A stretch of DNA of 64,000 nt from Coriobacteriaceae bacterium (GCA_902835305.1 CADFMD010000002.1:63374-127373), one strand, 5' to 3'; numbered from the stretch's first letter, positions 2,150-53,402 are shown. Notes: a model not told the origin generated them from the letters alone. Numbers and translations are program-made.

Positions 2150-3520
2150 CTATGCCACGCCGTCGCGGGCGAGCTCCTCGGCCAGCGCTTCGGCAGGCAT
2201 GGCCATAATCGCGTCGAGCTCGGCGTCCACCTCGGGTATGCGCTTCACCTTGAGCTTTCGCACCAGGTTGCCGCGGCACATCACGTGCATTGGCTCACGC
2301 AGAGCGCACAGGTCATCGAGCGGGTTCTCGTGCGTCACCAAAATGTCGGCCGCCTTACCGCACTCGATCGTGCCGGTCTCGTCACCCAGGCCCAGTAGCT
2401 CAGCATTGACTTGCGTGGCCGTATGCAGCGCAAACGCGTTGCTCACGCCCACGTACTTGGCAAAATAGGCCACCTCGCGCCACATGTCGTACTGGGTCAC
2501 GAACGGGCAGCTCGAGTCCGTGCCCAGGCCCACCTTAACGCCTGCTTCCAGCGCCGCACGAGCACTCTCGATAATGCCCGAGCACACGATGTCGCCGTTC
2601 TTCTTTTGCGTGTCAGTCGAATGGGTCTTCTCCGGATCGAGCAGGACGAACGGCAGCGCCGGGCTGATCGTGCAGGTAACGCTGGGCGCGCGTCCCTCGA
2701 GCTGTGTTCCCGCGGCGCCGCGGTACAGCTCCAGAATCTCAGGCGTCAGCGGAGCGCCGTGCTCGATTGTGTCGACACCGGCCTGAAGCGCGGCCTTCAC
2801 ACCTTCGGTGCTCTCGACATGGGCCATGACCGGAAGGCCAACCTCGTGCGCCGCCTTGCACGCCGCCGCGGCGACACCGACCGGCATGCGCAGCACGCCA
2901 GGCTCGCCTACTTCGGTCGCGTCGAACACGCCGCCCGTCACGAACAACTTGATGACATCGGCACCGCGCGTATACAGATCGCGCACCTGTTCGGCCGCCT
3001 CGGCGGGGGTATTGGCGACCTGCGCGAACAGCCCCGCACCGTGACCGCCCGGCACCGTGACACCCGTTCCCGGCGCCACCAGACGTGGACCCTGATACTT
3101 GCCGGCGTCGATAGCGTTGCGCACGGCAATATCGGCAAACAGCGGGTCACCCGCACCGCGCACCGTGGTCACGCCGCTTGCCAACTGTTGCTGGGCACTG
3201 CCTTTGAGGATGTGGCGAACGATGGCGCGGCCCACGGGATTGTCGAGCTTCTTCATCAGCGCACCCGCATCGCCCGCCGAAACTGGCTTGCCCGAGCCGC
3301 ACAGATGCACGTGCATATTGATGAGACCCGGCATGAGATACGCCCCTGCCAGGTCAATGACCTCGGCCCCCGCTGGAGCTTGGGCCACAGCGCTCGGCCC
3401 CATCCATGTGATGACACCGCGCTCGACGGCCACGGCCATATCGGGCTGCGGCTCCATATGCTCCGAACCATCCAGAACGGTCGCATTGATAAACAACGTG
3501 GGACGATCAGCAGACGCCAT
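2150..3520 (-). CDS. Amidohydrolase-family metal-dependent hydrolase
   Basis: LINMHVHL and HxH metal-binding motifs; start set at ATG 3520 preceded by GGGGGAGGAG; the ORF track extends upstream to 3649. Confidence 0.75.
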   Translation of the reverse strand: MASADRPTLFINATVLDGSEHMEPQPDMAVAVERGVITWMGPSAVAQAPAGAEVIDLAGAYLMPGLINMHVHLCGSGKPVSAGDAGALMKKLDNPVGRAIVRHILKGSAQQQLASGVTTVRGAGDPLFADIAVRNAIDAGKYQGPRLVAPGTGVTVPGGHGAGLFAQVANTPAEAAEQVRDLYTRGADVIKLFVTGGVFDATEVGEPGVLRMPVGVAAAACKAAHEVGLPVMAHVESTEGVKAALQAGVDTIEHGAPLTPEILELYRGAAGTQLEGRAPSVTCTISPALPFVLLDPEKTHSTDTQKKNGDIVCSGIIESARAALEAGVKVGLGTDSSCPFVTQYDMWREVAYFAKYVGVSNAFALHTATQVNAELLGLGDETGTIECGKAADILVTHENPLDDLCALREPMHVMCRGNLVRKLKVKRIPEVDAELDAIMAMPAEALAEELARDGVA

Positions 3521-3669
3521 ATCGAGCTCCTCCCCCTCAGAAAACTTCAACATTTGTCCATTATTACCCAGTTCGGCAGGATTGCTGCGGACATATCGGT
3601 TAACGGAGAAAGGAGGAGATGCGGAGAATGGAATGCGTTGCAGCCCCATCCCAGCGACATCCGGGAAAT

Positions 3670-3967
3670 GTCTAGATCTGTAACAGGTGGACCGTCTTTA
3701 ACCTTCCAAATGTTACAGATCGAGATCTTTCGGCACCGCGTCCAACCTTTGTCTCAATCTGTAACAGTTAGAGCGGTTTTTGGCCGTTAGATGTTACAGA
3801 TTAAGATATTCTCCAGCCCTGTCGTCAAACGTCTAAATCTGTAACAAGTAGACAGGTTTTCGGCCGTTAGATGTTACAGATCGAGATATTTTAGCGGCAG
3901 CCAACCTTCTGTCTCGATCTGTAACAGTTGCGAGGCCAAACGGCCCCTTGTTGTTACAGATCGAGAC
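3670..3967. repeat. Hairpin-repeat array 1: four 57-bp palindromic units (arms GTCT[ACT][GA]ATCTGTAACA / its reverse complement) separated by 23-24 bp linkers
   Basis: Units at 3670-3726, 3751-3807, 3831-3887 and 3911-3967; 16-bp arms are near-perfect inverted repeats around a semi-conserved ~25-nt loop (..AGAC.GGTTTT.GGCCGTTAGAT). Confidence 0.9.
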
Positions 3968-4008
3968 AAACTCGGCAGGAACAACCACATCCGCGTCAGT
4001 TACACCCC

Positions 4009-5085
4009 TCAGCGCCCATACCACTGCCGCCTCCACTGCTCAGCCAAATCGGCCCACTGCGGAATGCCCGCCAGTCTCATCTTTTCAGCCAGCTTCCCCG
4101 GATTCTTGAGCTCATCAAACGTAAACCTCAGCACCTTATGTCCGAGCATCGTCAGATGAGACTCTCGCTGACGTTCTGCCACGAACGGGTCGACCGACTC
4201 CCGACCCTCGTCGTTCTGTAAGGCATACTTTCCCTTTCCATCGAGCTCGCCAATCACGCACGTCCCGTCCTCGAGCCTCCAGAAATAATCAACGCGAAAC
4301 ACTTGGCTCGAATCAAGCGGGTCACGAAACTCCACCTGCAACTCTGGCACCGGAAAACCGTATGCAATAAAGAATGCCCGGAACCGAGACTCGCCACCGT
4401 TTTCGGACAGCCCGTCCGCATGCGACGCAATCACCTGAGCTCTGCGATATCCGCGTCTGCCCTCGCAATCGGCCTGGAGCCGTTCGCAGAGGTCGTCGCG
4501 CGATATGCCCTTCGCCCGCAGCGCAGAATCGGCGATCGCCAGACCATACGAAAACGGCGCACGCAGCAGACAGTCCTTCACCGTGCGCCAAAACGGCGTC
4601 ACTCGCACGCCGTCGACGCGCTCAAGCGCACCCGCCGCCTGCGGACGCAACAGCCGGCATCCTGCACTCAGCGGCACCGAGCAACCTGTCTTAACAAGAA
4701 ATCGCGGCCCAAGCAGATCATTTGGCACCTCCAGACCCCACAAAAGTGCCGCGTCGTAACCCCAAAACGCCCAATCGGGATGAAACTCCGCAAGCCCTTT
4801 GATGGTCCGCAGCGCTCGCTCCGTCGGCGTCAACGCATCCCAATCATGCTGAAAACAGAACAGGTGCGACTCAGGCTCCGCGATATCGTCGGTTCCCACA
4901 TGGCGCCGCAGCCACATGAGCTCGGCATTGTCGTGCGTCACAAGCAGCACGCCTAGTTCAGCCGCCTCCGTGAGCCTGGCAAGCATCCTATTCCGCGCCA
5001 ACGTGTTGCGAGCCGTATGCTTGTGTTTGAGAACGGTATTAGACACTTCCATCACCACCACATCGGACAAATGGACCATTGTCAC
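4009..5085 (-). CDS. DUF559 / Vsr-like (PD-(D/E)xK) endonuclease-domain protein with an N-terminal AbiEi-like region
   Basis: C-terminal VEFRDP..D..FRVDYFW..DGTCVIGELDGKGKY..ESHLTMLGHKVLRFTFDEL is the typical DUF559 signature; GTG start at 5085 or ATG at 5079. Confidence 0.7.
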   Translation of the reverse strand: MTMVHLSDVVVMEVSNTVLKHKHTARNTLARNRMLARLTEAAELGVLLVTHDNAELMWLRRHVGTDDIAEPESHLFCFQHDWDALTPTERALRTIKGLAEFHPDWAFWGYDAALLWGLEVPNDLLGPRFLVKTGCSVPLSAGCRLLRPQAAGALERVDGVRVTPFWRTVKDCLLRAPFSYGLAIADSALRAKGISRDDLCERLQADCEGRRGYRRAQVIASHADGLSENGGESRFRAFFIAYGFPVPELQVEFRDPLDSSQVFRVDYFWRLEDGTCVIGELDGKGKYALQNDEGRESVDPFVAERQRESHLTMLGHKVLRFTFDELKNPGKLAEKMRLAGIPQWADLAEQWRRQWYGR

Positions 5086-5105
5086 CGTTGCCTCCGCTGA
5101 TAAAC

Positions 5106-5242
5106 GTCTTGATCTGTAACAGTTAGACGTTCTCCAGGCCCCTAAACGTTACAGATTTAGACAAACCAGCGGCGCCCAGGTATTCGTCTCGATCTGTAAC
5201 AGGTAGACCGGTTTTTTGTCCCTAAACGTTACAGATCGAGAC
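5106..5242. repeat. Hairpin-repeat array 2: two 57-bp units with a 23-bp linker
   Basis: Units at 5106-5162 and 5186-5242 with the same GTCTYGATCTGTAACA arms as array 1. Confidence 0.9.
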
Positions 5243-5282
5243 ATAAAGGCAGAAGGCAAGGCAGGCGACAACCGTCCATCCC

Positions 5283-5990
5283 CTACTCCCATTCCTGTTC
5301 GTAGATGTTGAGCGACTTCACATACCGCCCCTGGGCACCCATGATGTCGCGGACCAGGCGCAAAAAGAAGCTGATGCACGAGGTGTCGAAACCGTCCTCC
5401 AGGTCCTCGGGATGCACCGAGCCCGGCCCGTCGACCGTCGTGTCGCTCAGGCGCGCGATGTCATACAGGTAGAGCTGCCCCGCCGTCAGCCAGACATCGT
5501 CGACGCACGCGAGTCGCACCGCAATCGCACCATCGTTCCAGCGCTCCTTTTGCACGATATGTGGGTCGTAGACGTCAAAGCGACGGTCGGTGCGCGTGTC
5601 CTTCAGCACGACCATGCCAGTCGCGGGATCCTTGTCCAAAATGCCAAAGCGCGAGAAATACTGCGTGTCGCGTACCTGCTCGAGCCGCTTGAGCGAGGCA
5701 GGCGAAAGCGATGCCGGCGGCTCGTCAACATACAGCTCGAGCAGCGTCTTGCCATGGCGATAGGGGCGCTCGAAGAGCAGCCAATCGGTAAATGCCATGT
5801 TGTAGGCCATGATTTCGTTTTGAGAAGGTTCCTCGCAATAGCTGAGCCACGGGTCGACGATAATCTCGAACTGTTCGCGTGCCGGCTCCAGGAATTGAAA
5901 CTTCCGCAGCATCCAAAAGTGAGCCATGTCGGCAATATCGTTGCCGACGGCTTCGGCTAGCTCTGCTCGGTCAAAAGCGTGGTCAGTCAT
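5283..5990 (-). CDS. Hypothetical protein (235 aa)
   Basis: Intact ORF in coding-like context; no motif recognised. Confidence 0.5.
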   Translation of the reverse strand: MTDHAFDRAELAEAVGNDIADMAHFWMLRKFQFLEPAREQFEIIVDPWLSYCEEPSQNEIMAYNMAFTDWLLFERPYRHGKTLLELYVDEPPASLSPASLKRLEQVRDTQYFSRFGILDKDPATGMVVLKDTRTDRRFDVYDPHIVQKERWNDGAIAVRLACVDDVWLTAGQLYLYDIARLSDTTVDGPGSVHPEDLEDGFDTSCISFFLRLVRDIMGAQGRYVKSLNIYEQEWE

Positions 5991-6302
5991 GGCATCCTCC
6001 TCAAACTGATGGACCTCAATTTGAGCTTACGAGGAAGGTGGGCAGCCACGACCAGCGCGGGCAAAATAGGCCTCCGACTGCAAACCAGATACTGACCAAA
6101 CACTTGACGAAAAGCTTGATCGAAAATGCGCACCGCAACAAAACCGCAGGTAGACATAGACGGCCAACCCGCCCTTTTGAGCCAGATGCCCGCAGCCACC
6201 ACAGAAACAACAGGTGACCACAGCCCGAGAAGTCGACAAATGAACACCCGTACGTCGACAAACGAGCAAACTGCTCGCAAATCCGCAAGGAGTGTCCCCG
6301 AA

Positions 6303-6364
6303 TGCCGGCACAAAAGGAACGTCCCTAACTGTCGGCACTTAGGGACGTTCCTTTTGTGCCGGCA
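6303..6364. repeat. Perfect 26-bp-stem hairpin built from two inverted copies of the GCCGGCACAAAAGGAACGTCCC box (repeat family B)
   Basis: tgccggcacaaaaggaacgtccctaa / ctgtcggcac / ttagggacgttccttttgtgccggca; lies just 3' of gltD on its strand and may act as a terminator or operator. Confidence 0.85.
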
Positions 6365-6414
6365 GTTAGGGACAGCCCTTGCCGATTCGATTGTTGAATA
6401 TCTCCGTGACTACT

Positions 6415-7896
<1,482 letters not shown>

Positions 7897-7901
7897 AGCA
7901 C

Positions 7902-10900
7902 TTACGCCTCCTTCTTGGTCGAAGCAACAGAGCTGGCGGCCACGGACGCAGCACCCGCAGCACCGCCCGCAATATCGAAGCGAGCGACATCCGCGGCGCT
8001 CGCGCGACCGGTCACAATGTCAAACGCCAGCTCCTCTGCCTGCGCATGTGTCTTGCCGGCAGCCTCGCTCGCAGCGACAATCGCCAGCACACGCTCGTAC
8101 TCGGTCGGAATGACCTTCACAAAGTGCTTGCTCATCGTCTCAAAGCTGTAGAGCAGCTTGATGCCGCGCGGGCTCTGCGTCGCGTCCACGTGCTCCTGGA
8201 TGAGCTCGCGAATCTGCGCCAGCTCGCCGGCAGTCGGGGCCTTGAGCTCAACGCTCTCGTGGTTCACGCGGGCATCGAGCGTGCCGTACTGGTCAAAGAC
8301 ATAAGCCACGCCACCCGTCATGCCGGCAGCGAAGTTCTGCCCGACCTCGCCCAGGATGAGCGCCAGGCCACCCGTCATGTACTCGCAACCGTGGTTGCCG
8401 CAACCCTCGACCACCACGGTGGCACCGGAGTTGCGTACGCCAAAGCGCTGGCCCGCCAGACCGTTAATGAAGCCGCGGCCGCTCGTAGCGCCAAAGAACG
8501 CAACGTTGCCCACAATGATGTTCTCGTCGAACTTGTAGGTCGCATGCGGGTTGGGGCGCACAGACACCTCGCCGCCCGAAAGGCCCTTGCCAAAGTAGTC
8601 GTTGGCGTCACCGCACACGTTGAGCGTAATGCCGCGCGGCAGGAAGGCGCCAAAGCTCTGACCGGCCGAACCATCGCAATCGATGGTGATGGAGCCGGCG
8701 GGCAGGCCCTCGGGATGAGCCTTGGTCACCGCGTTGCCCAGGATGGTGCCCACGCAGCGGTTGACGTTGGCGATATCGGCGCGGAAACGAATCGGACGCA
8801 GGTGCGCACGGGCATCGGCCGTATAGGGCACAAACAACGTGGAGTCGAGCGTCTTATCGAGCTCGCTGTCCGCAGCCATCTGCGGCAGGAAGTGGCGACC
8901 GTCGGCGCCCGGAATATGGGCACCGAACTCGCAGGTCGCGCTCGCCAGCACGGGCGACAGATCGAGCAGGTTTGCTTTGCGGTTGCCCGGGACCTCGATC
9001 TGGCGTAAGCACTCGGGATGGCCGACCATCTCGTCGACGGTGCGGAAGCCCAGGCTCGCCATGACCTCGCGCAGTTGCTCGGCAACAAAGAGCATAAAGT
9101 GCTCGACGTGCTCTGGCTTGCCGCGGAAGCCGCGACGCAGGCGGCAGTTTTGCGTAGCGATGCCGGCGGGGCAGGTATCCTGCTGGCAGTCGCGCTGCAT
9201 GAGGCAGCCCATAGAGATGAGCGGCATGGTCGCAAAGCCAAACTCCTCGGCACCCAGCAGGCAGGCGACGGCGACATCGGTGCCGTCCATGAGCTTGCCG
9301 TCAGCCTCGAGCACTACGCGCGAGCGCAGGCCGTTTTGCAGCAGCGTCTGCTGGGCCTCGGCAAGACCGAGCTCCAGCGGCAGACCCGCGTGCCAGATCG
9401 AATCGCGAGCAGCGGCACCCGAGCCGCCGTTGTGGCCGCTGATCAAGATCTTGTCGGCAGCGCCCTTGGCAACACCAGTGGCGATGGTGCCGACGCCGGC
9501 CTCGCTGACCAGCTTGACCGACACGCGCGCGCCGGGGTTGGCGTTCTTAAGGTCAAAGATCAGCTCTGCCAGGTCCTCGATGGAGTAGATGTCGTGGTGC
9601 GGCGGAGGCGAGATCAGGCCGATACCGGGCGTGGACTGACGGACCTCGGCAATCCAGGGGTAGACCTTCTTGCCGGGCAGGTGGCCACCCTCGCCGGGCT
9701 TGGCGCCCTGGGCCATCTTGATCTGAATCTCGAAGGCGCTGCACAGGTAGCGGCTCGTCACGCCAAAGCGCGCACTTGCCACCTGCTTGATCGCGGAGTT
9801 CTTGGAGTCGCCGTTGGCCAGCGGGGTCTCGCGACGCGGATCCTCACCGCCCTCGCCCGAGTTGGAACGGCCGTGTAGGCGGTTCATGGCGATGGCCATG
9901 CACTCGTGTGCCTCTTTGCTGATGGAGCCATACGACATGGCGCCGGTGTTAAAGCGGCGGACGATGTTGAGCGCGGGCTCGACCTCGTCGAGTGCCACCG
10001 GCGTGCGACCGTTGGCATTAAAGTCGAGCAAGTCGCGCAGGCGCACGGCACGGCCGGTGCGGTGCAGGCGGGCGCTGTACTCCTTAAAGGTGTCGTAGCT
10101 GTCCTCGCGGCAGGCGGTCTGCAGCAGGTAGACAGTCTGAGGGTCGATCAGGTGATCCTCGCCGCCGAGCGGGCGCCACTTGGTCAGGCCCAGTGTGGGC
10201 AGCTGATCGGGAGCCGGGCTCTTAAGGATGGCGAGTGCGGCGTCGTAGCGCTCATTCTGCTCGCGCTCGACGTCCTCGACACCCATACCGCCCACACGGC
10301 TCACCGTGCCGGCAAAGTACGCGTTAACAAACTCCGGGGTAAAGCCCACGGCCTCGAAGATTTGCGCCGAATGGTAGCTCTGCACCGTGGAGATGCCCAT
10401 CTTGGACATAATGGAGACGATGCCAGCGGTCGCAGCCCTGTTGTAATTGGCGATGCCCTGCTCGGCCGTCACGTCCAGATCGCCGCGCGCCGCCAGATCG
10501 CGGATGCACGCATGCGCGTTATACGGATAGATGCCGCTCGCGGAGTAACCCACCAGTGCCGCAAAGTCGTGCGGGGACACGGCATCGCCGCACTCCACCA
10601 CGATGTCGGCAAAGGTACGCACGCCGGCGCGGATCAGGTGGTTGTGCACGCAGCCCACGGCAAGCAGCGACGGCACGGGTACCTCGCCCGCTCCGGCACG
10701 ATCGCTCAACACCACGATGTTCACGCCGTCGCGGACCGCAGCCTCAACGTCCTCTGCAAGCTGCTTGAGCGCAGCCTGCAGCGCGCCCTCGCCGGCATCG
10801 CGGCGGTACACGGCACGGAAACGGCGGGTCTTAAAGCCCACGCGGTCGATGGCACAGATACGCTCGAACTCCTCCTCGTTCAGCAGTGGGCGCTCCAAGC

Positions 10901-12599
10901 GCACCAGCTGGCAGGCCGTACGAGAGTCCTCGAGCAGGTTGCCGTGGTTGCCCAGGTAGAGCGTGGTCGAGGTGACCATATGCTCGCGAAGGGCGTCGAT
11001 GGGCGGGTTCGTGACCTGAGCGAACAGCTGATAGAAATAGTCGTAGAAGGAGCGCGTCTTCTTGGACAGGCAGGCCAGCGGCGCATCGATGCCCATCGAG
11101 GCGAGCGGCGCCTTGCCCTGCTGGGCCATGGGACGCACAACCTCGTCAACATCATCCCAGTGATACCCGAGCTTAGCCATGCGCACGGCGGCGGGCACCT
11201 CGGCGTCCTCGGCGGGCGTTGCCGTGGCAGGCCTATCGAGCGCGTCGACGGTCAGCGTCTCCTCGGCAATCCAATCACGGTAGGGCTTTTCCTTGGCGTA
11301 ACGGGCGCGCAGCTCGTCGTTGTAGATCACGCGGCCGCGGGCAAAATCGACCTCGAGCATCTGGCCCGGCCCCAGACAGCCGCTCGTCAGGATGTTCTCG
11401 GGGCTCACCTCGATGGTGCCCACCTCGCTTGCCAGCATAAAGCAACCGTCGCGCGTCACATAGTAGCGGGCGGGGCGCAGGCCGTTACGGTCGAGGGCGG
11501 CGCCCAGCGTGCGACCGTCGGTAAAGGCGATGGCTGCCGGGCCATCCCACGGCTCCATGAGCATGGACTGGTAAGCGTCGTAGGCGCGGCGCTCCTCACT
11601 CAGGCTGTCGTTGTGGTCCCACGGCTCGGGCAGCAACATGGACGCGGCACGCGTGAGCGGACGACCGTTCATGACCAGGAACTCAAGCACGTTATCCAGA
11701 ATCGCGGAATCGGATCCCTCGCGGTTGATGATAGGCATCACGCGCTCAAGATCGTGCTGCAGCACGGGGCTGTACAGGTTGGGCTCGCGGGCGCGAATCC
11801 AGTTGACGTTGCCCTTGAGGGTGTTGATCTCGCCGTTATGGATGATAAAGCGGTTGGGGTGCGCGCGCTCCCAGCTGGGCGTGGTGTTGGTGGAGTAGCG
11901 CGAGTGGACGAGCGCCACGGCCGTCTTGACGGCGGCGTCGTTGAGGTCGATGAAGAAGCGGCGCATCTGCGTGGCGACGAGCATGCCCTTGTACACGATA
12001 GTGCGCGAGCTCATGGAGCAGACGTAGAAGATCTTGTCGCGCAGGGCAAACTCGGCATCGGCCTTCTTCTCGATAGTGCGACGGCACACGTACAGGCGAC
12101 GCTCGAAGGCATCGCCGGCGGGCGTGTCGTCGGGGCGGCCCAGAAAGGCTTGCAGAATGGTGGGCATGCAGGCGCGTGCCGTCTCGCCCAAGTCGTGCGG
12201 GTCGACGGGCACCTCGCGCCAAAAGAGCAGCGGCACGCCGGCCTCGGCGCAGCCCTCCTCAAACACGCGACGGGCATCCTCTACGCCCTTGTCGTCCTGC
12301 GGGAAGAACAGCATGGCCACGCCATAGTCGCCCTCTGCCGGCAGAATCTGGCCGCACTTTTGAGCCTCTTTGCGGAAAAAGTGATGCGGAACCTGGAACA
12401 GGATACCGGCACCGTCGCCGGTGTTCTTCTCGAGTCCGGTGCCGCCGCGGTGCTCCAAGTTGACCAGAATGGACAGTGCATCGTCCAGAATCTGGTGATG
12501 GCGCTCACCGTTGATATCGGCAAGCGCGCCGATGCCACATGCATCGTGGTCGAATTCGGGGCGATAAAGGCCCTGCTGCTGAGCGGAATCTGCCTGCAT
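7902..12599 (-). CDS. gltB: Glutamate synthase large subunit
   Basis: 1565 aa; N-terminal Ntn amidotransferase start MQ..CGIGA, FMN and 3Fe-4S domains, C-terminal GXGXG domain; RBS GGGGAGGA. Confidence 0.95.
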   Translation of the reverse strand: MQADSAQQQGLYRPEFDHDACGIGALADINGERHHQILDDALSILVNLEHRGGTGLEKNTGDGAGILFQVPHHFFRKEAQKCGQILPAEGDYGVAMLFFPQDDKGVEDARRVFEEGCAEAGVPLLFWREVPVDPHDLGETARACMPTILQAFLGRPDDTPAGDAFERRLYVCRRTIEKKADAEFALRDKIFYVCSMSSRTIVYKGMLVATQMRRFFIDLNDAAVKTAVALVHSRYSTNTTPSWERAHPNRFIIHNGEINTLKGNVNWIRAREPNLYSPVLQHDLERVMPIINREGSDSAILDNVLEFLVMNGRPLTRAASMLLPEPWDHNDSLSEERRAYDAYQSMLMEPWDGPAAIAFTDGRTLGAALDRNGLRPARYYVTRDGCFMLASEVGTIEVSPENILTSGCLGPGQMLEVDFARGRVIYNDELRARYAKEKPYRDWIAEETLTVDALDRPATATPAEDAEVPAAVRMAKLGYHWDDVDEVVRPMAQQGKAPLASMGIDAPLACLSKKTRSFYDYFYQLFAQVTNPPIDALREHMVTSTTLYLGNHGNLLEDSRTACQLVRLERPLLNEEEFERICAIDRVGFKTRRFRAVYRRDAGEGALQAALKQLAEDVEAAVRDGVNIVVLSDRAGAGEVPVPSLLAVGCVHNHLIRAGVRTFADIVVECGDAVSPHDFAALVGYSASGIYPYNAHACIRDLAARGDLDVTAEQGIANYNRAATAGIVSIMSKMGISTVQSYHSAQIFEAVGFTPEFVNAYFAGTVSRVGGMGVEDVEREQNERYDAALAILKSPAPDQLPTLGLTKWRPLGGEDHLIDPQTVYLLQTACREDSYDTFKEYSARLHRTGRAVRLRDLLDFNANGRTPVALDEVEPALNIVRRFNTGAMSYGSISKEAHECMAIAMNRLHGRSNSGEGGEDPRRETPLANGDSKNSAIKQVASARFGVTSRYLCSAFEIQIKMAQGAKPGEGGHLPGKKVYPWIAEVRQSTPGIGLISPPPHHDIYSIEDLAELIFDLKNANPGARVSVKLVSEAGVGTIATGVAKGAADKILISGHNGGSGAAARDSIWHAGLPLELGLAEAQQTLLQNGLRSRVVLEADGKLMDGTDVAVACLLGAEEFGFATMPLISMGCLMQRDCQQDTCPAGIATQNCRLRRGFRGKPEHVEHFMLFVAEQLREVMASLGFRTVDEMVGHPECLRQIEVPGNRKANLLDLSPVLASATCEFGAHIPGADGRHFLPQMAADSELDKTLDSTLFVPYTADARAHLRPIRFRADIANVNRCVGTILGNAVTKAHPEGLPAGSITIDCDGSAGQSFGAFLPRGITLNVCGDANDYFGKGLSGGEVSVRPNPHATYKFDENIIVGNVAFFGATSGRGFINGLAGQRFGVRNSGATVVVEGCGNHGCEYMTGGLALILGEVGQNFAAGMTGGVAYVFDQYGTLDARVNHESVELKAPTAGELAQIRELIQEHVDATQSPRGIKLLYSFETMSKHFVKVIPTEYERVLAIVAASEAAGKTHAQAEELAFDIVTGRASAADVARFDIAGGAAGAASVAASSVASTKKEA

Positions 12600-12783
12600 C
12601 GCGATCCTCCCCTAGATATTTAGACAGTCAGTTGAATAGGCATAGTAGGGGCATCGGGGCGTCGTTGTGTTTCCCGCCCGTTTCGAAACAATCGCGTAAC
12701 GCACACCTTACGAGTGGGCACCGCCGACCTCAAGGGCGAAAACATAGGCCCCAAGTTCGACCTGCAAACTCACCTCTTCATAC

Positions 12784-13000
12784 ATCTCAATCTGTAACAG
12801 TAAGACCCAATTTCGACGACTAACTGTTACAGATTGAGATGTTTTCGAGAGACGGTTCCAAATGTCTCAATCTGTAACATGAAGGGCCGGTTTTTGCAGC
12901 TAACTGTTACAGATCGAGATTTTCCATAGGACCATTTCTTCCTGTCTTGATCTGTAACACCTAGACCCAATTTCCATCCCTAGTTAATACAGATCAAGAC
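12784..13000. repeat. Hairpin-repeat array 3: three 57-bp units with 23-bp linkers, in the divergent gltB/gpmA intergenic region
   Basis: Units at 12784-12840, 12864-12920 and 12944-13000; arms (A/G)TCT[CT][AG]ATCTGTAACA. Confidence 0.9.
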
Positions 13001-13165
13001 ATTTCGGCAATCCCCTTTCACCGTCCCATTCAAATACAACAATTTTGTTAGTCATGGTTAACTTTTTAGCATAAAACGGGTATCCTTTGCGGCGTCAAGC
13101 AAACGGCACGCACACCGTGCCAGATCAAGGAGGCCCCTATGGCGCACCGAGCAGACCGACAGACA

Positions 13166-13912
13166 ATGCAACTTGTCCTTATCCGTCACGGAGAATCCGA
13201 GTGGAACAAACTCAACCTGTTCACCGGCTGGACCGACGTAGAACTCACCGACACGGGCCGCGAAGAAGCCGCAGCAGGCGGTCGAGCCCTCAAAGAAGCG
13301 GGCTTCGACTTCGACGTCTGCTACACCTCGCGTCTCAAGCGCGCAATTCACACCCTCGACATCGTGCTCGGCCAAATGGATCGCGAGTGGTTGCCCGTCA
13401 TCAAATCCTGGAAGCTCAACGAGCGCCACTACGGAGCGTTGCAGGGTCTCAACAAGGCCGATGCCGCAGCGGAGCACGGCGACGAGCAGGTGCTCATCTG
13501 GCGCCGCTCCTTCGATGTCTGCCCGCCGGCACTCGAGCCGGACGACGCGCGCGATCCCCACACCCAGGAGCAATACCGTGATGTCGCGCCCGATCAGCTG
13601 CCCTATACCGAGTGCCTCAAGGACACGATCGCCCGCGCCTGGCCTTATTTCGAAGACGAGATTCGCCCCCAGATGCTCGCCGGCAAGCGCGTACTCATCG
13701 CCGCACACGGCAACTCCCTGCGCTCACTCGTCATGAAGCTCGAGCACCTCACGCCCGAGGAGATCCTCAAGGTCAACATCCCCACCGGCGTGCCGCTCGT
13801 CTACACCTTCGACACCGATTTCAACGTCCTCGACAAGCGCTACATCGGCGACCCGGCGACCATCGCCGCCAAGATCGACGCCGTGGCCAATCAGGGCAAA
13901 GCGCACAAGTAG
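13166..13912 (+). CDS. gpmA: 2,3-bisphosphoglycerate-dependent phosphoglycerate mutase
   Basis: LIRHGESEWN catalytic-His motif near the N-terminus; ~248 aa. Confidence 0.9.
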   Translation: MQLVLIRHGESEWNKLNLFTGWTDVELTDTGREEAAAGGRALKEAGFDFDVCYTSRLKRAIHTLDIVLGQMDREWLPVIKSWKLNERHYGALQGLNKADAAAEHGDEQVLIWRRSFDVCPPALEPDDARDPHTQEQYRDVAPDQLPYTECLKDTIARAWPYFEDEIRPQMLAGKRVLIAAHGNSLRSLVMKLEHLTPEEILKVNIPTGVPLVYTFDTDFNVLDKRYIGDPATIAAKIDAVANQGKAHK

Positions 13913-13987
13913 CCCCAACCCAAATCCGAAGCGTGGCGCCGCACGACCCAGATGCGACGTCACGCCGCCCATACGCAGGAGCTCACC

Positions 13988-15244
13988 ATGCTCAACCATC
14001 TCAAACAACACTTTGGCTCCCGACGCACCGGCGGTCACGGAGGCCTAGACATTGCGCGGCATATCGGCCCCGGGCTGCTCGTGACCGTCGGCTTTATCGA
14101 CCCGGGCAACTGGGCCTCCAATATGGCCGCGGGCTCGCAGTTTGGCTACGCGCTGCTGTGGATCGTCACGCTGTCCACGATTATGCTCATTGTGCTGCAG
14201 CACAACGCGGCGCACCTGGGTATCGCCACGGGCGCCTGCCTTGCCGAGGCCACGACACGTTACCTCCCCCGCTTCGTTGGACGCACGGTACTCGCCAGTG
14301 CCTATCTCGCGACTGTCGCCACCGCCATGGCCGAAGTCCTGGGTGGCGCGATTGCCCTTCAAATGCTCTTTGGGCTGCCCGTGCGCGCGGGCTGCGTCAT
14401 CGTGGCGGCAGTATCGATGGCGATGCTCATGACGAACTCCTACAAGCATGCCGAACGCTGGATCATCGCCTTCGTAGGCGTGGTAGGACTCTCGTTTTTG
14501 GCCGAGCTTGCACTAGTCAAGGTCGACTGGCCGCAAGCCGCCGTAAGCTGGATCACGCCTAGTATGCCCACTGGCTCTGCCGCGATTATCGTGAGCGTCC
14601 TGGGTGCGGTCGTTATGCCACACAACCTTTTTCTGCACTCCGAGGTCATCCAATCCATGCACTTCGAAGGCCAAGGCGAGCAGGTTATCGAAGAACGTCT
14701 GCGCTACGAGCTCTTCGACACGCTCTTTTCGATGGGCGTGGGCTGGGCAATCAACTCGGCCATGGTCATCCTGGCCGCAACGACCTTCTTTGCGCACGGC
14801 ATGGTCGTAGACGACCTCACCGTCGCAGCGGCCACGCTCTCCCCCATCTTGGGCCCGGCGAGCTCGACCATCTTTGCGGTAGCGCTGCTGTTCGCGGGAT
14901 TATCGAGCAGCGTGACAGCGGGCATGGCGGCGGGAACCATCACTGCGGGCATGTTCGACGAGGAATACGACATCCACGACCGACATTCCTCGGTCGGGGT
15001 GGCGGCCTGTTTCGCCGGAGCAGTGGCGGCGTGCCTGGTCGTTCCAAATCCTTTTGAAGGTCTCATCTGGAGTCAGGCACTGCTGTCGCTTCAGCTGCCG
15101 ATTACGGTCTTTGTGCTCATACGACTCACCAGTTCACGCCGCGTCATGGGCAAATACGCCAATTCGCGCCCGCTCAACGCGCTGCTTGTAGGGATTGGTG
15201 TCATCGTGACGATTCTCGATGTCGTGTTGTTGACAGGGATGTAA
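13988..15244 (+). CDS. mntH: Nramp-family divalent metal (Mn2+/Fe2+) transporter
   Basis: GPGLLVTVGFIDPGNWASNMAAGSQFGY and MPHNLFLHS Nramp consensus motifs; 11-12 TM helices. Confidence 0.85.
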   Translation: MLNHLKQHFGSRRTGGHGGLDIARHIGPGLLVTVGFIDPGNWASNMAAGSQFGYALLWIVTLSTIMLIVLQHNAAHLGIATGACLAEATTRYLPRFVGRTVLASAYLATVATAMAEVLGGAIALQMLFGLPVRAGCVIVAAVSMAMLMTNSYKHAERWIIAFVGVVGLSFLAELALVKVDWPQAAVSWITPSMPTGSAAIIVSVLGAVVMPHNLFLHSEVIQSMHFEGQGEQVIEERLRYELFDTLFSMGVGWAINSAMVILAATTFFAHGMVVDDLTVAAATLSPILGPASSTIFAVALLFAGLSSSVTAGMAAGTITAGMFDEEYDIHDRHSSVGVAACFAGAVAACLVVPNPFEGLIWSQALLSLQLPITVFVLIRLTSSRRVMGKYANSRPLNALLVGIGVIVTILDVVLLTGM

Positions 15245-15271
15245 TGGGACGGGGCACCTACCCAGGCAAAC

Positions 15272-15408
15272 GTCTCGATCTGTAACATCTAGACCCGCTT
15301 TTGATGTCTAGATGTTACAGATCGAGATCATTCCGAGGGACAGCTCCGTTTGTCTCGATCTGTAACAGGAAGACCCGTTTTGAGCCGTTAGACGTTACAG
15401 ATTAAGAC
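15272..15408. repeat. Hairpin-repeat array 4: two 57-bp units with a 23-bp linker, between convergent mntH and rubredoxin
   Basis: Units at 15272-15328 and 15352-15408; in unit 1 the stem extends into the loop (TCTAGAC...GTCTAGA). Confidence 0.9.
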
Positions 15409-17971: not shown

Positions 17972-18048
17972 TGGTAGCCCGTACCAGATTCGAACTGGTG
18001 ATCTCCGCCTTGAGAGGGCGGCGTCCTAAACCGCTAGACGAACGGGCC
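17972..18048 (-). tRNA. tRNA-Glu (anticodon CUC)
   Basis: Cloverleaf folded by hand: GGCCCGT acceptor stem, anticodon arm CCGCC/cuCUCaa/GGCGG, TTCGAATC T-loop, encoded CCA. Confidence 0.8.
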
Positions 18049-18065
18049 ATATGTAGCAAATGCAA

Positions 18066-18139
18066 TGGCTGGGATGGAGGGAGTCGAACCCCCATTGACG
18101 GAACCAGAATCCGCTGTCCTGCCATTAGACGACATCCCA
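18066..18139 (-). tRNA. tRNA-Gln (anticodon CUG)
   Basis: Acceptor stem TGGGATG/CATCCCA, anticodon loop uuCUGgu, GGTTCGACT T-arm, encoded CCA. Confidence 0.75.
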
Positions 18140-18255
18140 ATGACTGCATCGCTGCGCTCGGCTGTGCCTTTGCGCAAGAAAGAAATATACGGGAAGTCCG
18201 GCCGTGACGCAAGCCCCAATTTTGACTTTTTTGAAATTCAGTCAAATACGGCCGA

Positions 18256-18315
18256 CACGTGAAGGACCTGTGAAGCGCCAGCGACACGTGAAGGACCTGT
18301 GAAGCGCCAGCGACA
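18256..18315. repeat. Perfect tandem duplication of a 30-bp unit (acgtgaaggacctgtgaagcgccagcgac x2)
   Basis: Direct reading of the sequence. Confidence 0.8.
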
Positions 18316-18412
18316 CGTACGGCGCCAAAGCCCGTAAAACATCCCGCATCTACCGCTGGTAGATTACAACAATGCAGCACTCACGGCTGATGGCACAATC
18401 GAACCGTCATCA

Positions 18413-51191: not shown

Positions 51192-53402
51192 ATGGGTCCT
51201 CGCCAACGACAGGGACGCAGCCGTTCAAAGACGCATGCTCTGCCCATAATCCTGCTCTCGTTTTTGGGCTTTTTGCTTATCGCGGGCGTGGCATTTGGCA
51301 TCGGCATGGTCGGCAACGTCAACCGCTGGCTGTCCGATCTGCCCGACTACACCGACGCCAACGCGTATCTGGTGAGCGAGCCCACCGAGATCGTCGACTG
51401 CAACGGCAACAAGATTGCGAGCTTCTACACGCAAAACCGCAAGTCTATCACCAAGGACGAGGTCTCCCCCTACGTGCTGCAGGGCACCGTTGACGTCGAG
51501 GACGAGCGCTTCTACGAGCACGGCGGTATCGACCTGTGGGGTATCGCGCGCGCTGCGGTGGCAACCCTCGGCGGCGGTCACGAAGGCGCCTCGACTATCA
51601 CCCAGCAGCTGGTGCGCAACACCATCCTGCAGGAGGAGCAGTTCGACTCGACCATCGAGCGTAAGGTGCGCGAGGCTTACATCGCCGTCAAGATGGAGGA
51701 TATGTACTCCAAAGACGAGATCCTCATGATGTACCTCAACACCATCTATTACGGCCACGGCGCCTACGGTATCGAGGCCGCCGCCGAGACCTACCTATCC
51801 AAGAGCGCCGCCGACCTCACCCTGAGCGAAGCCGCGCTGTTGATCGGCCTTCCCAACTCGCCCTCGCAGTACGACCCCACGGTCAACCCCGACCTGGCGC
51901 TGTCCCGTCGCAACAAGGTCCTCGACAACATGTTGCGCCTGGGCCACATCACGCAGGAGGAGCACGATGCCGCACAGGCCGAGCCCATCACCCTCAACGT
52001 GACCGAGATTTCGGGCAGCGGCGTCGACGTATACTCGCAGCCCTACTTTGTCGCCTATGTTAAGCAGCTGCTGGAGCAGGAGTTCTCGACCGACGTGCTC
52101 TTTAAGGGCGGTCTGACCGTCAAGACCACCATCGATCCCACGATGCAGCAGGTGGCAGAGAATGCCGTTCGCGAGCAGCTCGACACGCTCTCGCTCGACG
52201 GCCTGGACATGGGCATGGTCGTCGTCGACCCCAAGACCGGCTACATCAAGTGCATGGTGGGCGGCTACGACTACAACGCCGACGAGAACCACGTAAACCA
52301 TGCCACGGCCAAGCGTCCCGTCGGCTCCACCTTTAAGGCCTTTACGCTGGCAACTGCCATCCAAAACGGCATGAACCCCAACGTCACCCTCAACTGCAAC
52401 TCGCCGCTCAAGGCCAAGGGCACCACGACCGAGGTCCAAAACTACGCCAACCATAGCTATGGCAACATCACGCTTAAGCAGGCGACGGCATACTCCTCCA
52501 ACACCGGCTACATCCAGGTGGCGGAAGCCGTCGGCAACAGCAAGATCATCTCGCTCGTCAAAAAGCTCGGCATCGATCCCGCCAAGGACAACATCGAGGA
52601 CGTTCCCGTCATGACGCTCGGCACCGGCTCGATCTCGCCGCTCGAGATGGCCGCCGCCTACGCAACGTTTGCCAATGGCGGCTACTATCGCCAGCCGATC
52701 GCCATCACCGAGATTGACTCTCGTACCGGCTCGGTGCTGTACCAGCACACTGACAATCCCTCACAGGTGCTTACCGAGGGCGAGGCCGCCGCGGTCACCG
52801 ATGTTCTGTCCGGCGTCATGCAGGGCGGCGGTACGGGCGCTGCCGGTGCCCTAAGCGTCAACCAGCCCTATGCCGGCAAGACGGGCACCACCGACAACAC
52901 CACCAACCTGTGGTTCTGCGGCTATACCCCGCAGCTGGCGTGCGCCCTGTGGACCGGCTATTCCGCGGGCGAGATCCCCATCCAAAAGTACGGCACGGAC
53001 CTGCTGGGCGACAGCACCAACCTGCCTGTCTTTAAGCGGTTTATGAACACCGTTCTGACCGGTACCGAGCGCGAGGAGTTTGCGACCGGAACGGCGCCCA
53101 CCTACAAGAACAACAGCGTCTGGAAGTTCTACGGCACCAACAACACCAAGAAGTCGGAGAACGACGACAAGGACAAGGACGAAGAGGAAGAGGAAACCAC
53201 CACAACGACTACCACGACGACCACGACCACCGAGACCACGGGCGGCGACACCACCGGCGGCACCGGTACGACCGGTGGCTCGACGGGTGGCTCCACTGGT
53301 GGTTCGACCGGCGGCGATGGCGGCACGCCTACGCCTACGCCTACGCCTACGCCTACGCCCACTCCCGACCCCTCGCCCACGCCTGACGATACGGTCGGCT
53401 AA
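51192..53402 (+). CDS. Class A penicillin-binding protein (transglycosylase/transpeptidase) with a Thr/Gly/Pro-rich C-terminal tail
   Basis: GT51 motifs (EDERFYEHGGID, RKVRE), transpeptidase STFK and KTGT; tail encoded partly by an (ACGCCT)5 hexanucleotide repeat at ~53326-53360; RBS GGAGG. Confidence 0.85.
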   Translation: MGPRQRQGRSRSKTHALPIILLSFLGFLLIAGVAFGIGMVGNVNRWLSDLPDYTDANAYLVSEPTEIVDCNGNKIASFYTQNRKSITKDEVSPYVLQGTVDVEDERFYEHGGIDLWGIARAAVATLGGGHEGASTITQQLVRNTILQEEQFDSTIERKVREAYIAVKMEDMYSKDEILMMYLNTIYYGHGAYGIEAAAETYLSKSAADLTLSEAALLIGLPNSPSQYDPTVNPDLALSRRNKVLDNMLRLGHITQEEHDAAQAEPITLNVTEISGSGVDVYSQPYFVAYVKQLLEQEFSTDVLFKGGLTVKTTIDPTMQQVAENAVREQLDTLSLDGLDMGMVVVDPKTGYIKCMVGGYDYNADENHVNHATAKRPVGSTFKAFTLATAIQNGMNPNVTLNCNSPLKAKGTTTEVQNYANHSYGNITLKQATAYSSNTGYIQVAEAVGNSKIISLVKKLGIDPAKDNIEDVPVMTLGTGSISPLEMAAAYATFANGGYYRQPIAITEIDSRTGSVLYQHTDNPSQVLTEGEAAAVTDVLSGVMQGGGTGAAGALSVNQPYAGKTGTTDNTTNLWFCGYTPQLACALWTGYSAGEIPIQKYGTDLLGDSTNLPVFKRFMNTVLTGTEREEFATGTAPTYKNNSVWKFYGTNNTKKSENDDKDKDEEEEETTTTTTTTTTTTETTGGDTTGGTGTTGGSTGGSTGGSTGGDGGTPTPTPTPTPTPTPDPSPTPDDTVG

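Follow-up and report, generated by a model that had tools for sequence, protein, structure and literature searches.

The four intergenic arrays found in a 64,000-nucleotide stretch of DNA from Collinsella (Coriobacteriia), referred to here as the window, consist of a previously undescribed, low-copy, REP/BIME-like repeat. Arm sequence and spacings of this repeat are conserved, whereas loop and linker accumulate changes as fast as third codon positions. The arrays stay at fixed orthologous sites across species, where the number of units changes by unit-to-unit recombination or slippage. Most likely, the repeats persist since a sequence-specific protein reads their arms on DNA.

In a search of the window with the arm pattern GTCTYRATCTGTAACA, allowing up to two mismatches, 22 matches were obtained versus 0.03 expected from shuffled sequences. 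These matches make up 11 units, each with a left arm of 16 bp, a 25-nt loop and an inverted right arm, and fall exactly at the positions of the eleven units in four arrays given by a preliminary description of this DNA. Array A (3670..3967) contains four units (3670-3726, 3751-3807, 3831-3887 and 3911-3967), array B (5106..5242) two (5106-5162 and 5186-5242), array C (12784..13000) three (12784-12840, 12864-12920 and 12944-13000) and array D (15272..15408) two (15272-15328 and 15352-15408). The period in the window arrays is 80 bp, a value also returned by Tandem Repeats Finder for array A, and a profile search of the 64 kb recovered the same 11 units and no weaker copies elsewhere. When the 11 units are aligned, the 10-nt core of the arms, ATCTGTAACA/TGTTACAGAT, is invariant except in the right arm of the third and last unit of array C, which carries two mismatches. 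The loop is asymmetric, with TAGA followed by a central T-run and then CTAGA, and the idea that it extends the stem does not hold in general; positions 17-41 show no complementarity beyond chance. As for the linkers, previously regarded as weakly conserved, their length (23-24 nt) and the A/T triplets beside the arms are indeed maintained, while their centres are variable.

Array A lies between two minus-strand genes, with the stop of a DUF559-like gene (4009) on one side and the start of an amidohydrolase gene (3649) on the other. Array B is bordered by the start of the same DUF559-like gene (5085) and by the stop (5283) of a gene coding for 235 amino acids. Both arrays lie in a co-directional string of minus-strand genes, with the next start codon 20 nt away, and must be transcribed within it. 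Array C is located in the divergent spacer between gltB (start at 12599, minus strand) and gpmA (start at 13139, plus strand), and array D, in a convergent spacer, begins 27 nt past the stop codon of mntH. The gene on the other side of array D had been called a rubredoxin; the RefSeq annotation of a syntenic strain supports a rubredoxin-like protein plus flavin reductase, whereas Pfam detects only Flavin_Reduct at this position.

The repeat unit, with equal period, was detected in at least 119 Collinsella contigs, and the family is so far found only in Collinsella, in the C. aerofaciens group, a gut bacterium. A piece of C. aerofaciens chromosome of 899,693 bp (the 0.9-Mb record) contains 29 units in 13 arrays, which corresponds to about 14 array sites per 0.9 Mb and, by extrapolation, to approximately 75-80 units per 2.4-Mb genome; the first 400 kb of this piece contain no unit (P=5e-4 for a uniform distribution). 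The dispersed family proposed in the preliminary description is thus borne out by contigs and chromosome piece alike, and further copies, on which that proposal depended, do exist. In a census of 367 units, the loop measured 25 nt in 364 of 366, and units were spaced by 80 or 81 bp at 211 of 221 junctions. The module is a non-coding element of about 80 bp in which a 16-bp arm, a 25-bp loop and the inverted 16-bp arm are enclosed by two A/T triplets. Modules follow one another head to tail in arrays of 1-7 units with 23-24 bp between the arms of neighbours; the arms alternate in orientation, separated in turn by gaps of 25 nt and 23-24 nt. Arms start with GTCT or ATCT, the preceding base being C in only 82 of 351 units, and positions -2..0, 28-30 and 58-60 are kept as A/T tracts of one polarity or the other (AAA or TTT). 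No Rfam family, Collinsella-1 included, matched the arrays at gathering score in a scan of the whole window; at E<=10 over positions 3500-5400 (arrays A and B), only chance matches to miRNA and snoRNA families were obtained. In the literature we found no paper on this repeat.

Nearly all arrays (145 of 146) are outside called genes, as are all 13 in the 0.9-Mb record. Among 121 arrays with assigned context, 44 are in tandem, 39 in convergent and 38 in divergent spacers; overall, roughly a quarter to a third are located in divergent spacers. A hairpin at gene ends, together with the share of arrays in convergent spacers (39 of the 121, and 5 of the 13 in the 0.9-Mb record), could suggest intrinsic, possibly bidirectional, terminators or insulators at operon boundaries, a role that had been put forward initially. 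However, on both strands the consensus flank TTT-unit-AAA is the opposite of a hairpin with a U-tract behind it, a terminator scan at the arrays gave 11 sites versus 11.7 expected, divergent promoter spacers hold arrays equally often and, at a GDSL-lipase site, the array is followed by a distinct canonical terminator. We consider this role very improbable, and the intrinsic terminator in its strict form, a G+C-rich stem followed by a T-run, was rejected on flank polarity and the lack of any excess in the scan. The T-run of the loop was found on the sense strand in 19 cases and on the antisense strand in 25, without orientation bias, and single arrays contain units of both loop orientations. 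Since the palindrome reads alike on both strands, the absence of strand bias does not discriminate between a function in DNA and one in RNA.

Between orthologous arrays, loops (0.123) and linkers (0.116) diverge like third codon positions (0.124), whereas values were 0.057 for the outer arm, 0.023 for the arm core and 0.019 for codon positions 1+2. Arm cores diverge 3-9 times slower than loops, linkers and third codon positions. The slow rate of the core also survives when ascertainment is one-sided: 210 unit pairs had 0-3 core mismatches and none had 4-15, while 11 more pairs with 16-18 core mismatches were taken to be aligned out of register and were left aside. Where neutral divergence was below 0.2, the binned ratio of core to neutral rate went from about 0.6 in the closest pairs to about 0.1. 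Arms are equally constrained in divergent, tandem and convergent spacers, with arm-core divergences of 0.026, 0.024 and 0.019, respectively. In principle, part of this conservation could stem from enzyme-driven copy correction rather than from selection at the level of the host.

These data bear on a role of the repeat as an RNA cis element, in which transcribed 16-bp hairpins in 3' UTRs or between cistrons would block 3'-5' exonucleases or serve as processing sites for RNase III/J/Y, as likewise proposed for E. coli REPs. Array A folds at -131.6 kcal/mol (z = -10, as RNA or ssDNA) and single units at -6 to -23 kcal/mol, many arrays begin 20-110 nt past a stop codon, and at the GDSL-lipase site the array sits between the stop codon and a terminator-like hairpin with T-run. 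Since arrays A and B, within their co-directional gene string and 20 nt from the next start codon, must be transcribed and the folds are very stable, an RNA-level role keeps a place. Nevertheless, we judge it unlikely, and the RNA-stability function suggested at the outset is disfavoured: arm conservation is just as strong in divergent promoter spacers, which cannot act as 3' UTRs and hold the share of arrays mentioned above. Moreover, no Rfam family matches, and the variable stem positions lack compensatory changes: at arm pairs 1/57, 5/53 and 6/52, mutual information was near 0 and Watson-Crick counts equalled the expectation for independence, indicating that the sequence is kept and not the pairing.

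Orthologous arrays differ by whole units of 80-81 bp only, and range from 1 to 7 units. One, two or four units are present at sites orthologous to array A, two to five at those of array B, one, two or three at those of array C, and two, three or four at those of array D. The one-unit allele between gltB and gpmA is chimeric, combining units 1 and 3 of array C, and no loop inversion was seen between orthologues (0 reverse-complement matches versus 338 forward). In L038, a single unit stands in place of the array-gene-array segment of 1.41-1.49 kb of other genomes. Recombination between neighbouring arrays can delete, or has inserted, an intervening gene. Both the differences in unit number and this replacement directly support the role as recombination hot spots considered in the preliminary description.

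MITEs such as Correia/NEMIS, RUP and ERIC are short, non-coding, hairpin-forming intergenic elements with terminal inverted repeats (PMC3184786), and the Collinsella unit resembles them in being short, non-coding and intergenic and in forming a hairpin from inverted arms. An active non-autonomous transposon of MITE or REPIN type, mobilised in trans, for instance by a Y1 enzyme (RAYT or IS200-like), would agree with 16-bp arms that look like terminal inverted repeats, with dispersal over tens of sites, with the IS200/IS605 TnpA copies of Collinsella, and with the two loop orientations inside arrays, as would result from independent insertions. On the other hand, none of the hallmarks of MITEs, namely target-site duplications, presence/absence polymorphism and a parent IS whose ends match, was found for the Collinsella repeat. 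A target-site duplication of 5-6 bp was present at 0 of 146 arrays, and flank identity of 2-4-mers at 10-13 of 146, which is the level of chance. At least one unit occupied the site in every orthologous comparison, in a sample that is biased towards occupied sites, and no empty site was observed. No parent IS bearing these arms at its ends was detected in the 0.9 Mb, where recognised units leave 13 further arm-like matches, none of them at the end of an IS, and the ends of IS200/IS605 elements bear unrelated hairpins. Copy number is low and decayed copies were not found. Using E. coli RayT and Collinsella IS200 TnpA as queries, we found no RAYT in the window, as noted earlier, and neither a Y1 transposase of this kind nor another recombinase beside arrays in the approximately 1.9 Mb sampled (window, 119 loci and 0.9-Mb record), although the E. 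coli query is insensitive, missing Collinsella IS200 TnpA, and about 1.5 Mb of any genome is outside the sample. We do not regard the repeat as an active MITE, and current transposition of MITE or REPIN type appears quite unlikely.

A conserved repeat at regular spacing with variable inserts of fixed length also recalls CRISPR or another adaptive array, in which loops or linkers would be acquired spacers. However, repeat orientation alternates, the loops share the consensus described above, loops and linkers are kept between species at the neutral rate without turnover, and the arrays are scattered as tens of short clusters. Array A had no match in 50,697 phage records, neighbouring genes are metabolic, and no cas genes were present among the scanned neighbours of arrays. 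We agree with the previous rejection of this interpretation, the probability of which is practically negligible.

By architecture only, the repeat is REP/BIME-like. REPs are imperfect palindromes of 20-40 bp with a GT(A/G)G or CGTC head (PMC2817692, PMC3733652), which are known, with BIMEs, in Enterobacteria, Pseudomonas, Xanthomonas and Stenotrophomonas (PMC2817692; PMC3733652). As anticipated in the preliminary description, the Collinsella arrays have a BIME-like arrangement of intergenic palindromic units with alternating arms and a spacing of 80 or 81 bp; like REP/BIME (PMC2817692; PMC3733652), they consist of clustered extragenic palindromes in alternating copies, regularly spaced and with linkers of fixed length. 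Also in common are sequence conservation, which in REPs reflects recognition by proteins (RAYT, IHF, gyrase), a number of copies per cluster that varies among strains, and the condition of being IS insertion targets; in strain TSDC17.2-1.1, a unit at the array D site is disrupted by an IS200/IS605 element. Three defining features of REPs were either absent or not found, namely the GTAG-type head, a copy number above 100 per genome and the cognate RAYT. The Collinsella unit has neither a GTAG nor a CGTC head, its 16-nt arm is not self-palindromic, its palindrome measures 57 bp, its extrapolated 75-80 units per genome compare with >100 to 600 for REPs, no RAYT appeared in the DNA sampled, and its host is an actinobacterium. 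REPs are reported to retain palindromy via complementary mutations (PMC2817692), unlike the Collinsella stems. REPINs (PMC3116915, PMC3337134) resemble the unit in that two conserved sequences, inverted relative to each other, enclose a less conserved spacer and form one long hairpin, here with 16-bp arms, a 25-nt loop and the folding energies given above, and in being non-coding, vertically inherited and present as singlets, doublets and tandem clusters. Nonetheless, the arm of a REPIN is a REP hairpin by itself, and REPINs are tied to a single-copy RAYT that they flank (PMC3116915, PMC3337134). The Collinsella repeat differs in its loop fixed at 25 nt, its low copy number and the lack of a known RAYT.

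In Neisseria, NIMEs are intergenic arrays in which dRS3 repeats alternate with RS blocks, and which act as recombination substrates and targets of mobile DNA. The alternation of a short conserved repeat with variable blocks in intergenic arrays is shared with Collinsella, but the dRS3 repeat measures 20 bp and has inverted ends of its own, RS blocks measure 50-150 bp and belong to several families, and their spacing is not rigid as it is here. The MIRU/VNTR loci of mycobacteria, likewise actinobacteria, comprise tens of intergenic sites with tandem units of 40-100 bp, whose copy number varies among strains and is useful for typing, and in these respects they are similar to our arrays. MIRUs, however, lack long inverted arms; they are repeated directly, follow the orientation of the operon and often contain small ORFs, whereas the Collinsella unit is palindromic, has no orientation preference and, with 80 bp, is not a multiple of three.

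On balance, we lean towards considering the repeat a new, genus-specific member of the REP/BIME-like class whose arms are protein recognition sites. What is maintained would be a phased array of sequence-specific sites on DNA, in which, by arithmetic on the consensus, arm centres lie 41 and 39-40 bp apart and the A/T tracts, of either polarity, approximately 30, 30 and 20 bp apart. The sites would be read by a putative Collinsella protein. One candidate is a transposase-like enzyme that has been domesticated, comparable to RAYT in the case of REPs; another is an architectural or topological protein, with a part similar to that of IHF and gyrase at E. coli BIMEs. The potential to form a hairpin or cruciform may be used by this putative protein or may be a by-product, and the family probably spread by transposition in the ancestor of the group, being today not detectably mobile. 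A more specific proposal, which we advance as possible but doubtful, is that the arrays are not junk or selfish DNA but are maintained by the host as helically phased binding-site platforms for a putative DNA-binding protein, either architectural/topological or a domesticated recombinase. If this were true, arm sequence and the 41/39-40-bp spacing would be under purifying selection whatever the transcriptional context, and unit number would tune local chromosome structure or recombination.

The gene between arrays A and B (4009..5085, minus strand) codes for a 358-aa Collinsella-specific protein with a weakly DUF559-like C-terminus; the original assignment to DUF559 is retained only as a resemblance, the Pfam match being below threshold (E=0.039). 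We regard it as a context gene, and its membership in the repeat system is only a candidate idea. That this DUF559-like (Vsr/PD-(D/E)XK-type) gene codes for the cognate enzyme of the repeats, as a non-Y1 analogue of the RAYT-REP pair, seems to us a long shot. The gene is missing in L038. All homologues listed are 85-98% identical, the few with a source name being from Collinsella, and the dN/dS of the gene is 0.17.

A search of the window with the arm pattern GTCTYRATCTGTAACA, allowing at most 2 mismatches, returned 22 matches where 0.03 were expected, and these pair into 11 units, each made of a left arm, a 25-nt loop and a right arm. Their positions are exactly those at which the preliminary description had placed 11 palindromic units: four in array A (3670-3967), two in array B (5106-5242), three in array C (12784-13000) and two in array D (15272-15408). 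Tandem Repeats Finder gave a period of 80 bp for array A, and a profile HMM trained on several hundred units recovered the same 11 units, the other 48 kb of the window giving no weaker hits. Across the 11 aligned units the core ATCTGTAACA/TGTTACAGAT was invariant, with the single exception of a degenerate right arm in unit 3 of array C.

The unit consensus, read from left flank through arm, loop and arm to right flank, is TtT-GTCTCGATCTGTAACA-gcTAGAcCcGtTTTTGgCgcCTAGa-TGTTACAGATCGAGAC-Aat, and the arms hardly vary outside positions 1, 5 and 6 and the positions paired with these. The loop is asymmetric, with a T-run at its centre; it measures exactly 25 nt in 364 of 366 cases (window and Collinsella loci listed) and exists in both orientations, which are often mixed within one array. 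The linkers had been called weakly conserved, which holds for their length, fixed at 23-24 nt, and for the A/T triplets abutting the arms, but not for their sequence, which is variable. At -2..0, 28-30 and 58-60 there are homopolymeric A/T tracts of either polarity (AAA or TTT). Judging from these positions, the tracts would lie about 30, 30 and 20 bp apart and the arm centres 41 and 39-40 bp apart, distances that would correspond to whole helical turns within the 80-81-bp period. A CRISPR-like reading of these arrays, already dismissed in the preliminary description, is likewise rejected here.

That the units belong to a dispersed family was borne out by a search through one genome per species for the pattern ATCTGTAACA-N20-30-GTTACAGAT, which was present in at least 119 contigs, essentially all from Collinsella and including C. 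aerofaciens isolates. The 80-81-bp spacing was common to all contigs listed, which together with the window held 367 units. Spacings between units were 80 bp (n=129), 81 bp (n=82) or 79 bp (n=7) in the window and the loci listed, where arrays contained one (19 arrays), two (61), three (44), four (18), five (3) or seven (1) units and fell into about 54 site groups defined by their flanks. No Rfam family was found at the arrays, either at gathering thresholds over the whole window or at E<=10 over arrays A and B, and neither the 16-mer nor Collinsella repeats of this type were found in the literature, in which the supplement of PMC8040213 names Collinsella motifs without sequences.

In NZ_OY725717.1, an 899,693-bp sequence of C. 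aerofaciens TSDC17.2-1.1, there were 13 arrays with 29 intact units, plus one unit disrupted by an IS. None of these arrays lay in the first 400 kb (1-400,000; P=5e-4 if arrays were uniformly placed), and five were found within 20 kb, in a region syntenic with the start of the window. The family is thus low-copy and clumped; extrapolation from this 0.9-Mb sequence gives about 35-40 sites and 75-80 units per genome. The array-free 400 kb is rich in core housekeeping genes and IS elements and holds a BREX island, and three of the arrays stand at paralogous lac/PTS clusters. Solo arm-like sequences, CGTTACAGATTGAGAC and GGTTACAGATCGAGGA, from which the partner arm is absent, occur at 770,019 (L166 20019-20034) and 343,279 (L157 43279-43294); CGTTACAGATTGAGAC adjoins a restriction-modification/toxin-antitoxin island and GGTTACAGATCGAGGA immediately precedes a start codon. 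Both may be what is left of truncated units. PLSDB lists NZ_OY725717.1 as 'plasmid 6', typed non-mobilizable; since it carries recA, ftsK, rpoBC, ribosomal protein operons and tRNA synthetases, it is plainly a mis-typed piece of chromosome and, as it was the sole 'plasmid' match, we reject plasmid carriage of the repeat. Phage carriage was rejected as well, with no match to array A in 50,697 phage records.

Nearly all arrays (145 of 146 in the window and the loci listed) lie outside called genes, in tandem (44), convergent (39) and divergent (38) spacers. In NZ_OY725717.1 the corresponding numbers were 5, 5 and 3, against a background of 186, 75 and 80 spacers of at least 100 bp. The neighbouring genes are ordinary ones, encoding amidohydrolase, glutamate synthase, Nramp, LacI/GntR regulators, PTS components, GH1 and DXP synthase. 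Loop T-runs were counted 19 times on the sense and 25 times on the antisense strand. It had been proposed that the hairpins could end transcription, a reading that we reject, as a terminator would have the opposite of the consensus flank TTT-unit-AAA and terminators were not in excess at arrays in a consensus scan. Sigma-70-like sites were not in excess in such a scan either, and a promoter reading was rejected.

Between orthologous arrays, divergence was 0.124 at third codon positions of the flanking genes, 0.123 in loops and 0.116 in linkers, falling to 0.057 at the outer arm positions and to 0.023 in the arm core, a value close to the 0.019 of codon positions 1+2. Since the detection of units could bias this result, the comparison was repeated with detection required in a single genome. 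Of the 221 unit pairs in this one-sided test, 210 had 0-3 core mismatches, none had 4-15 and 11 had 16-18; the latter, which we read as misaligned registers, account for an apparent rise of arm divergence to 0.062. In bins below 0.2 neutral divergence, the ratio of core to neutral rate went from about 0.6 in the closest pairs to about 0.1. Arm constraint did not depend on spacer type, with core divergence of 0.026 for divergent, 0.024 for tandem and 0.019 for convergent spacers. The variable arm positions were independent of their partners, with mutual information near 0 and Watson-Crick counts equal to the expectation under independence (for pair 6/52: GC 99, AT 81, AC 80, GT 76). Low arm divergence together with the absence of covariation indicates that what is maintained is each arm's sequence, along with the spacing, and not base-pairing. 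Arrays A and B must be transcribed, and single-strand folds of units and arrays are very stable, so that a role as RNA stabiliser or processing site is possible, but it is disfavoured by an arm constraint that does not depend on context and by the lack of covariation.

The best-supported reading is that of a REP/BIME-like family whose arms are putative recognition sites of a sequence-specific protein acting on DNA. Such a protein partner is predicted from arms conserved like nonsynonymous sites, without covariation, in every type of spacer and with rigid phasing. The protein would recognise the arms on DNA; the arrays themselves evolve through recombination at the level of whole units.

Every comparison between orthologous sites with flanks 85-96% identical showed an array, and the differences consisted of whole units, with 1, 2 or 3 units at the gltB/gpmA site (array C), 2-4 at the mntH site (array D) and 2-5 at the site of array B. 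In the 1-unit allele at gltB/gpmA, the left half of array C unit 1 is fused to the right half of unit 3, a hallmark of unequal recombination or of slippage between units. In L038, from genome MGYG-HGUT-04358, a single unit (2957-3013 of that locus) stands where array B, a DUF559-like gene and array A are found elsewhere, a block that spans 1.41-1.49 kb in other genomes; this replacement shows that arrays mediate gene loss or gain. Both cases show the arrays to be recombination substrates, in keeping with the hot spots that had been suggested for them. No inverted loops were found between orthologues, and a shufflon-like flip of the loop was rejected, since the exact reverse-complement matches arose artefactually from the arbitrary orientation of the loci. 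Disfavoured, too, is an active MITE or REPIN: target-site duplications were looked for at the arrays and were absent, and there were no empty sites in the comparisons, no parent element in the 0.9 Mb of NZ_OY725717.1 and no decayed copies.

The Collinsella-specific 358-aa gene bracketed by arrays A and B (4009-5085, minus strand) is under purifying selection (dN/dS 0.17). It has a sub-threshold Pfam match to DUF559 at its C-terminus, where, by our own reading of the alignment, the motifs appear typical of the DUF559 nuclease fold. All homologues listed are 85-98% identical, the few with a source name being from Collinsella; no match was found in PDB, PADLOC, PHROGs or NCBIfam, and the AlphaFold model is poor and unusable (pLDDT 42). 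A role as cognate enzyme of the repeats was not supported, as the homologues listed include no distant ones from which co-occurrence could be read, and any link of this gene to the repeats is conjectural.

No Y1 transposase was found beside arrays in about 1.9 Mb sampled with E. coli RayT and Collinsella IS200 TnpA probes, of which the RayT probe is too insensitive. In TSDC17.2-1.1, an IS200/IS605 element (NZ_OY725717.1 422,700-423,490; L159 22700-23490) interrupts a unit at the array D site: the left arm, loop and a single T directly precede it, and the right arm is missing. Its ends are hairpins unrelated to the repeat arms, and no IS with repeat arms as its ends was found in the 0.9 Mb of NZ_OY725717.1. 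A second copy, with an identical tnpA (WP_055287554.1), lies at L161 33290-34045, and L040 and L097 have tnpA remnants that cover its first 20 aa. About 90 bp past an array beside a GDSL-lipase gene, a prophage encoding a tyrosine integrase, a T5orf172 protein and a CI-like HTH/S24 repressor was seen in L121 (1045-2289) and also in L124, L129, L131, L133 and L146. As the host/phage junction comes only after a terminator-like hairpin (...cttaatactgccaca), next to the integrase gene, we rejected the array as a phage attachment site; unit-bearing 'viral' contigs were likewise rejected as phage DNA, their units being in host flank beside prophage.

As defined in the literature (PMC2817692; PMC3733652), a REP is a palindrome of 20-40 bp that carries a GTAG or CGTC head and exceeds 100 copies; in BIMEs, REPs are regularly spaced in alternating orientation, and they are associated with a RAYT that has REPs on either side. 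The Collinsella element resembles them in being extragenic, clustered, alternating and fixed in spacing, but differs in head motif and unit size. It stands outside the RAYT-REP family sensu stricto and is best filed as a genus-specific addition to the broad REP/BIME-like interspersed palindromic repeats, an expected kind of thing and the first such family that we could find for the Coriobacteriia. The predicted protein partner, if true, would carry REP/BIME biology past the Proteobacteria into the Actinomycetota.

Collinsella is among the most strain-diverse genera of the human gut. With about 35-40 intergenic loci in each genome, varying by whole 80-bp units, the family offers a ready-made VNTR-type strain marker, and as recombination substrates the arrays can alter gene content, as in array-gene-array versus single unit. 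Several contigs terminate at arrays, and the repeats are a likely source of contig breaks in metagenome assemblies.

Some minor features were also recorded. Between array C and mntH, the window has a gpmA-like gene (His_Phos_1, 13139-13912) that is missing there in TSDC17.2-1.1, where the Nramp gene begins 122 nt past the array; the roughly 1.5 kb that separate arrays C and D in L016 leave too little room for the gpmA-like gene. An L31-Coriobacteria ribosomal protein leader (RF03128; 33506-33541, minus strand) scored 35.1 bits against a gathering score of 33, consistent with the window being from Coriobacteriia. A perfect 29-bp tandem repeat, CGACACGTGAAGGACCTGTGAAGCGCCAG (18253-18318; 2.3 copies, 100% identical), adjoins two tRNA genes at 17975-18139 on the minus strand. 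Finally, dense short tandem repeats at 53166-53359 (ACCACG-like, CGACCGGTGGCT x3.9 and a perfect ACGCCT x5.8) probably represent a low-complexity coding segment.
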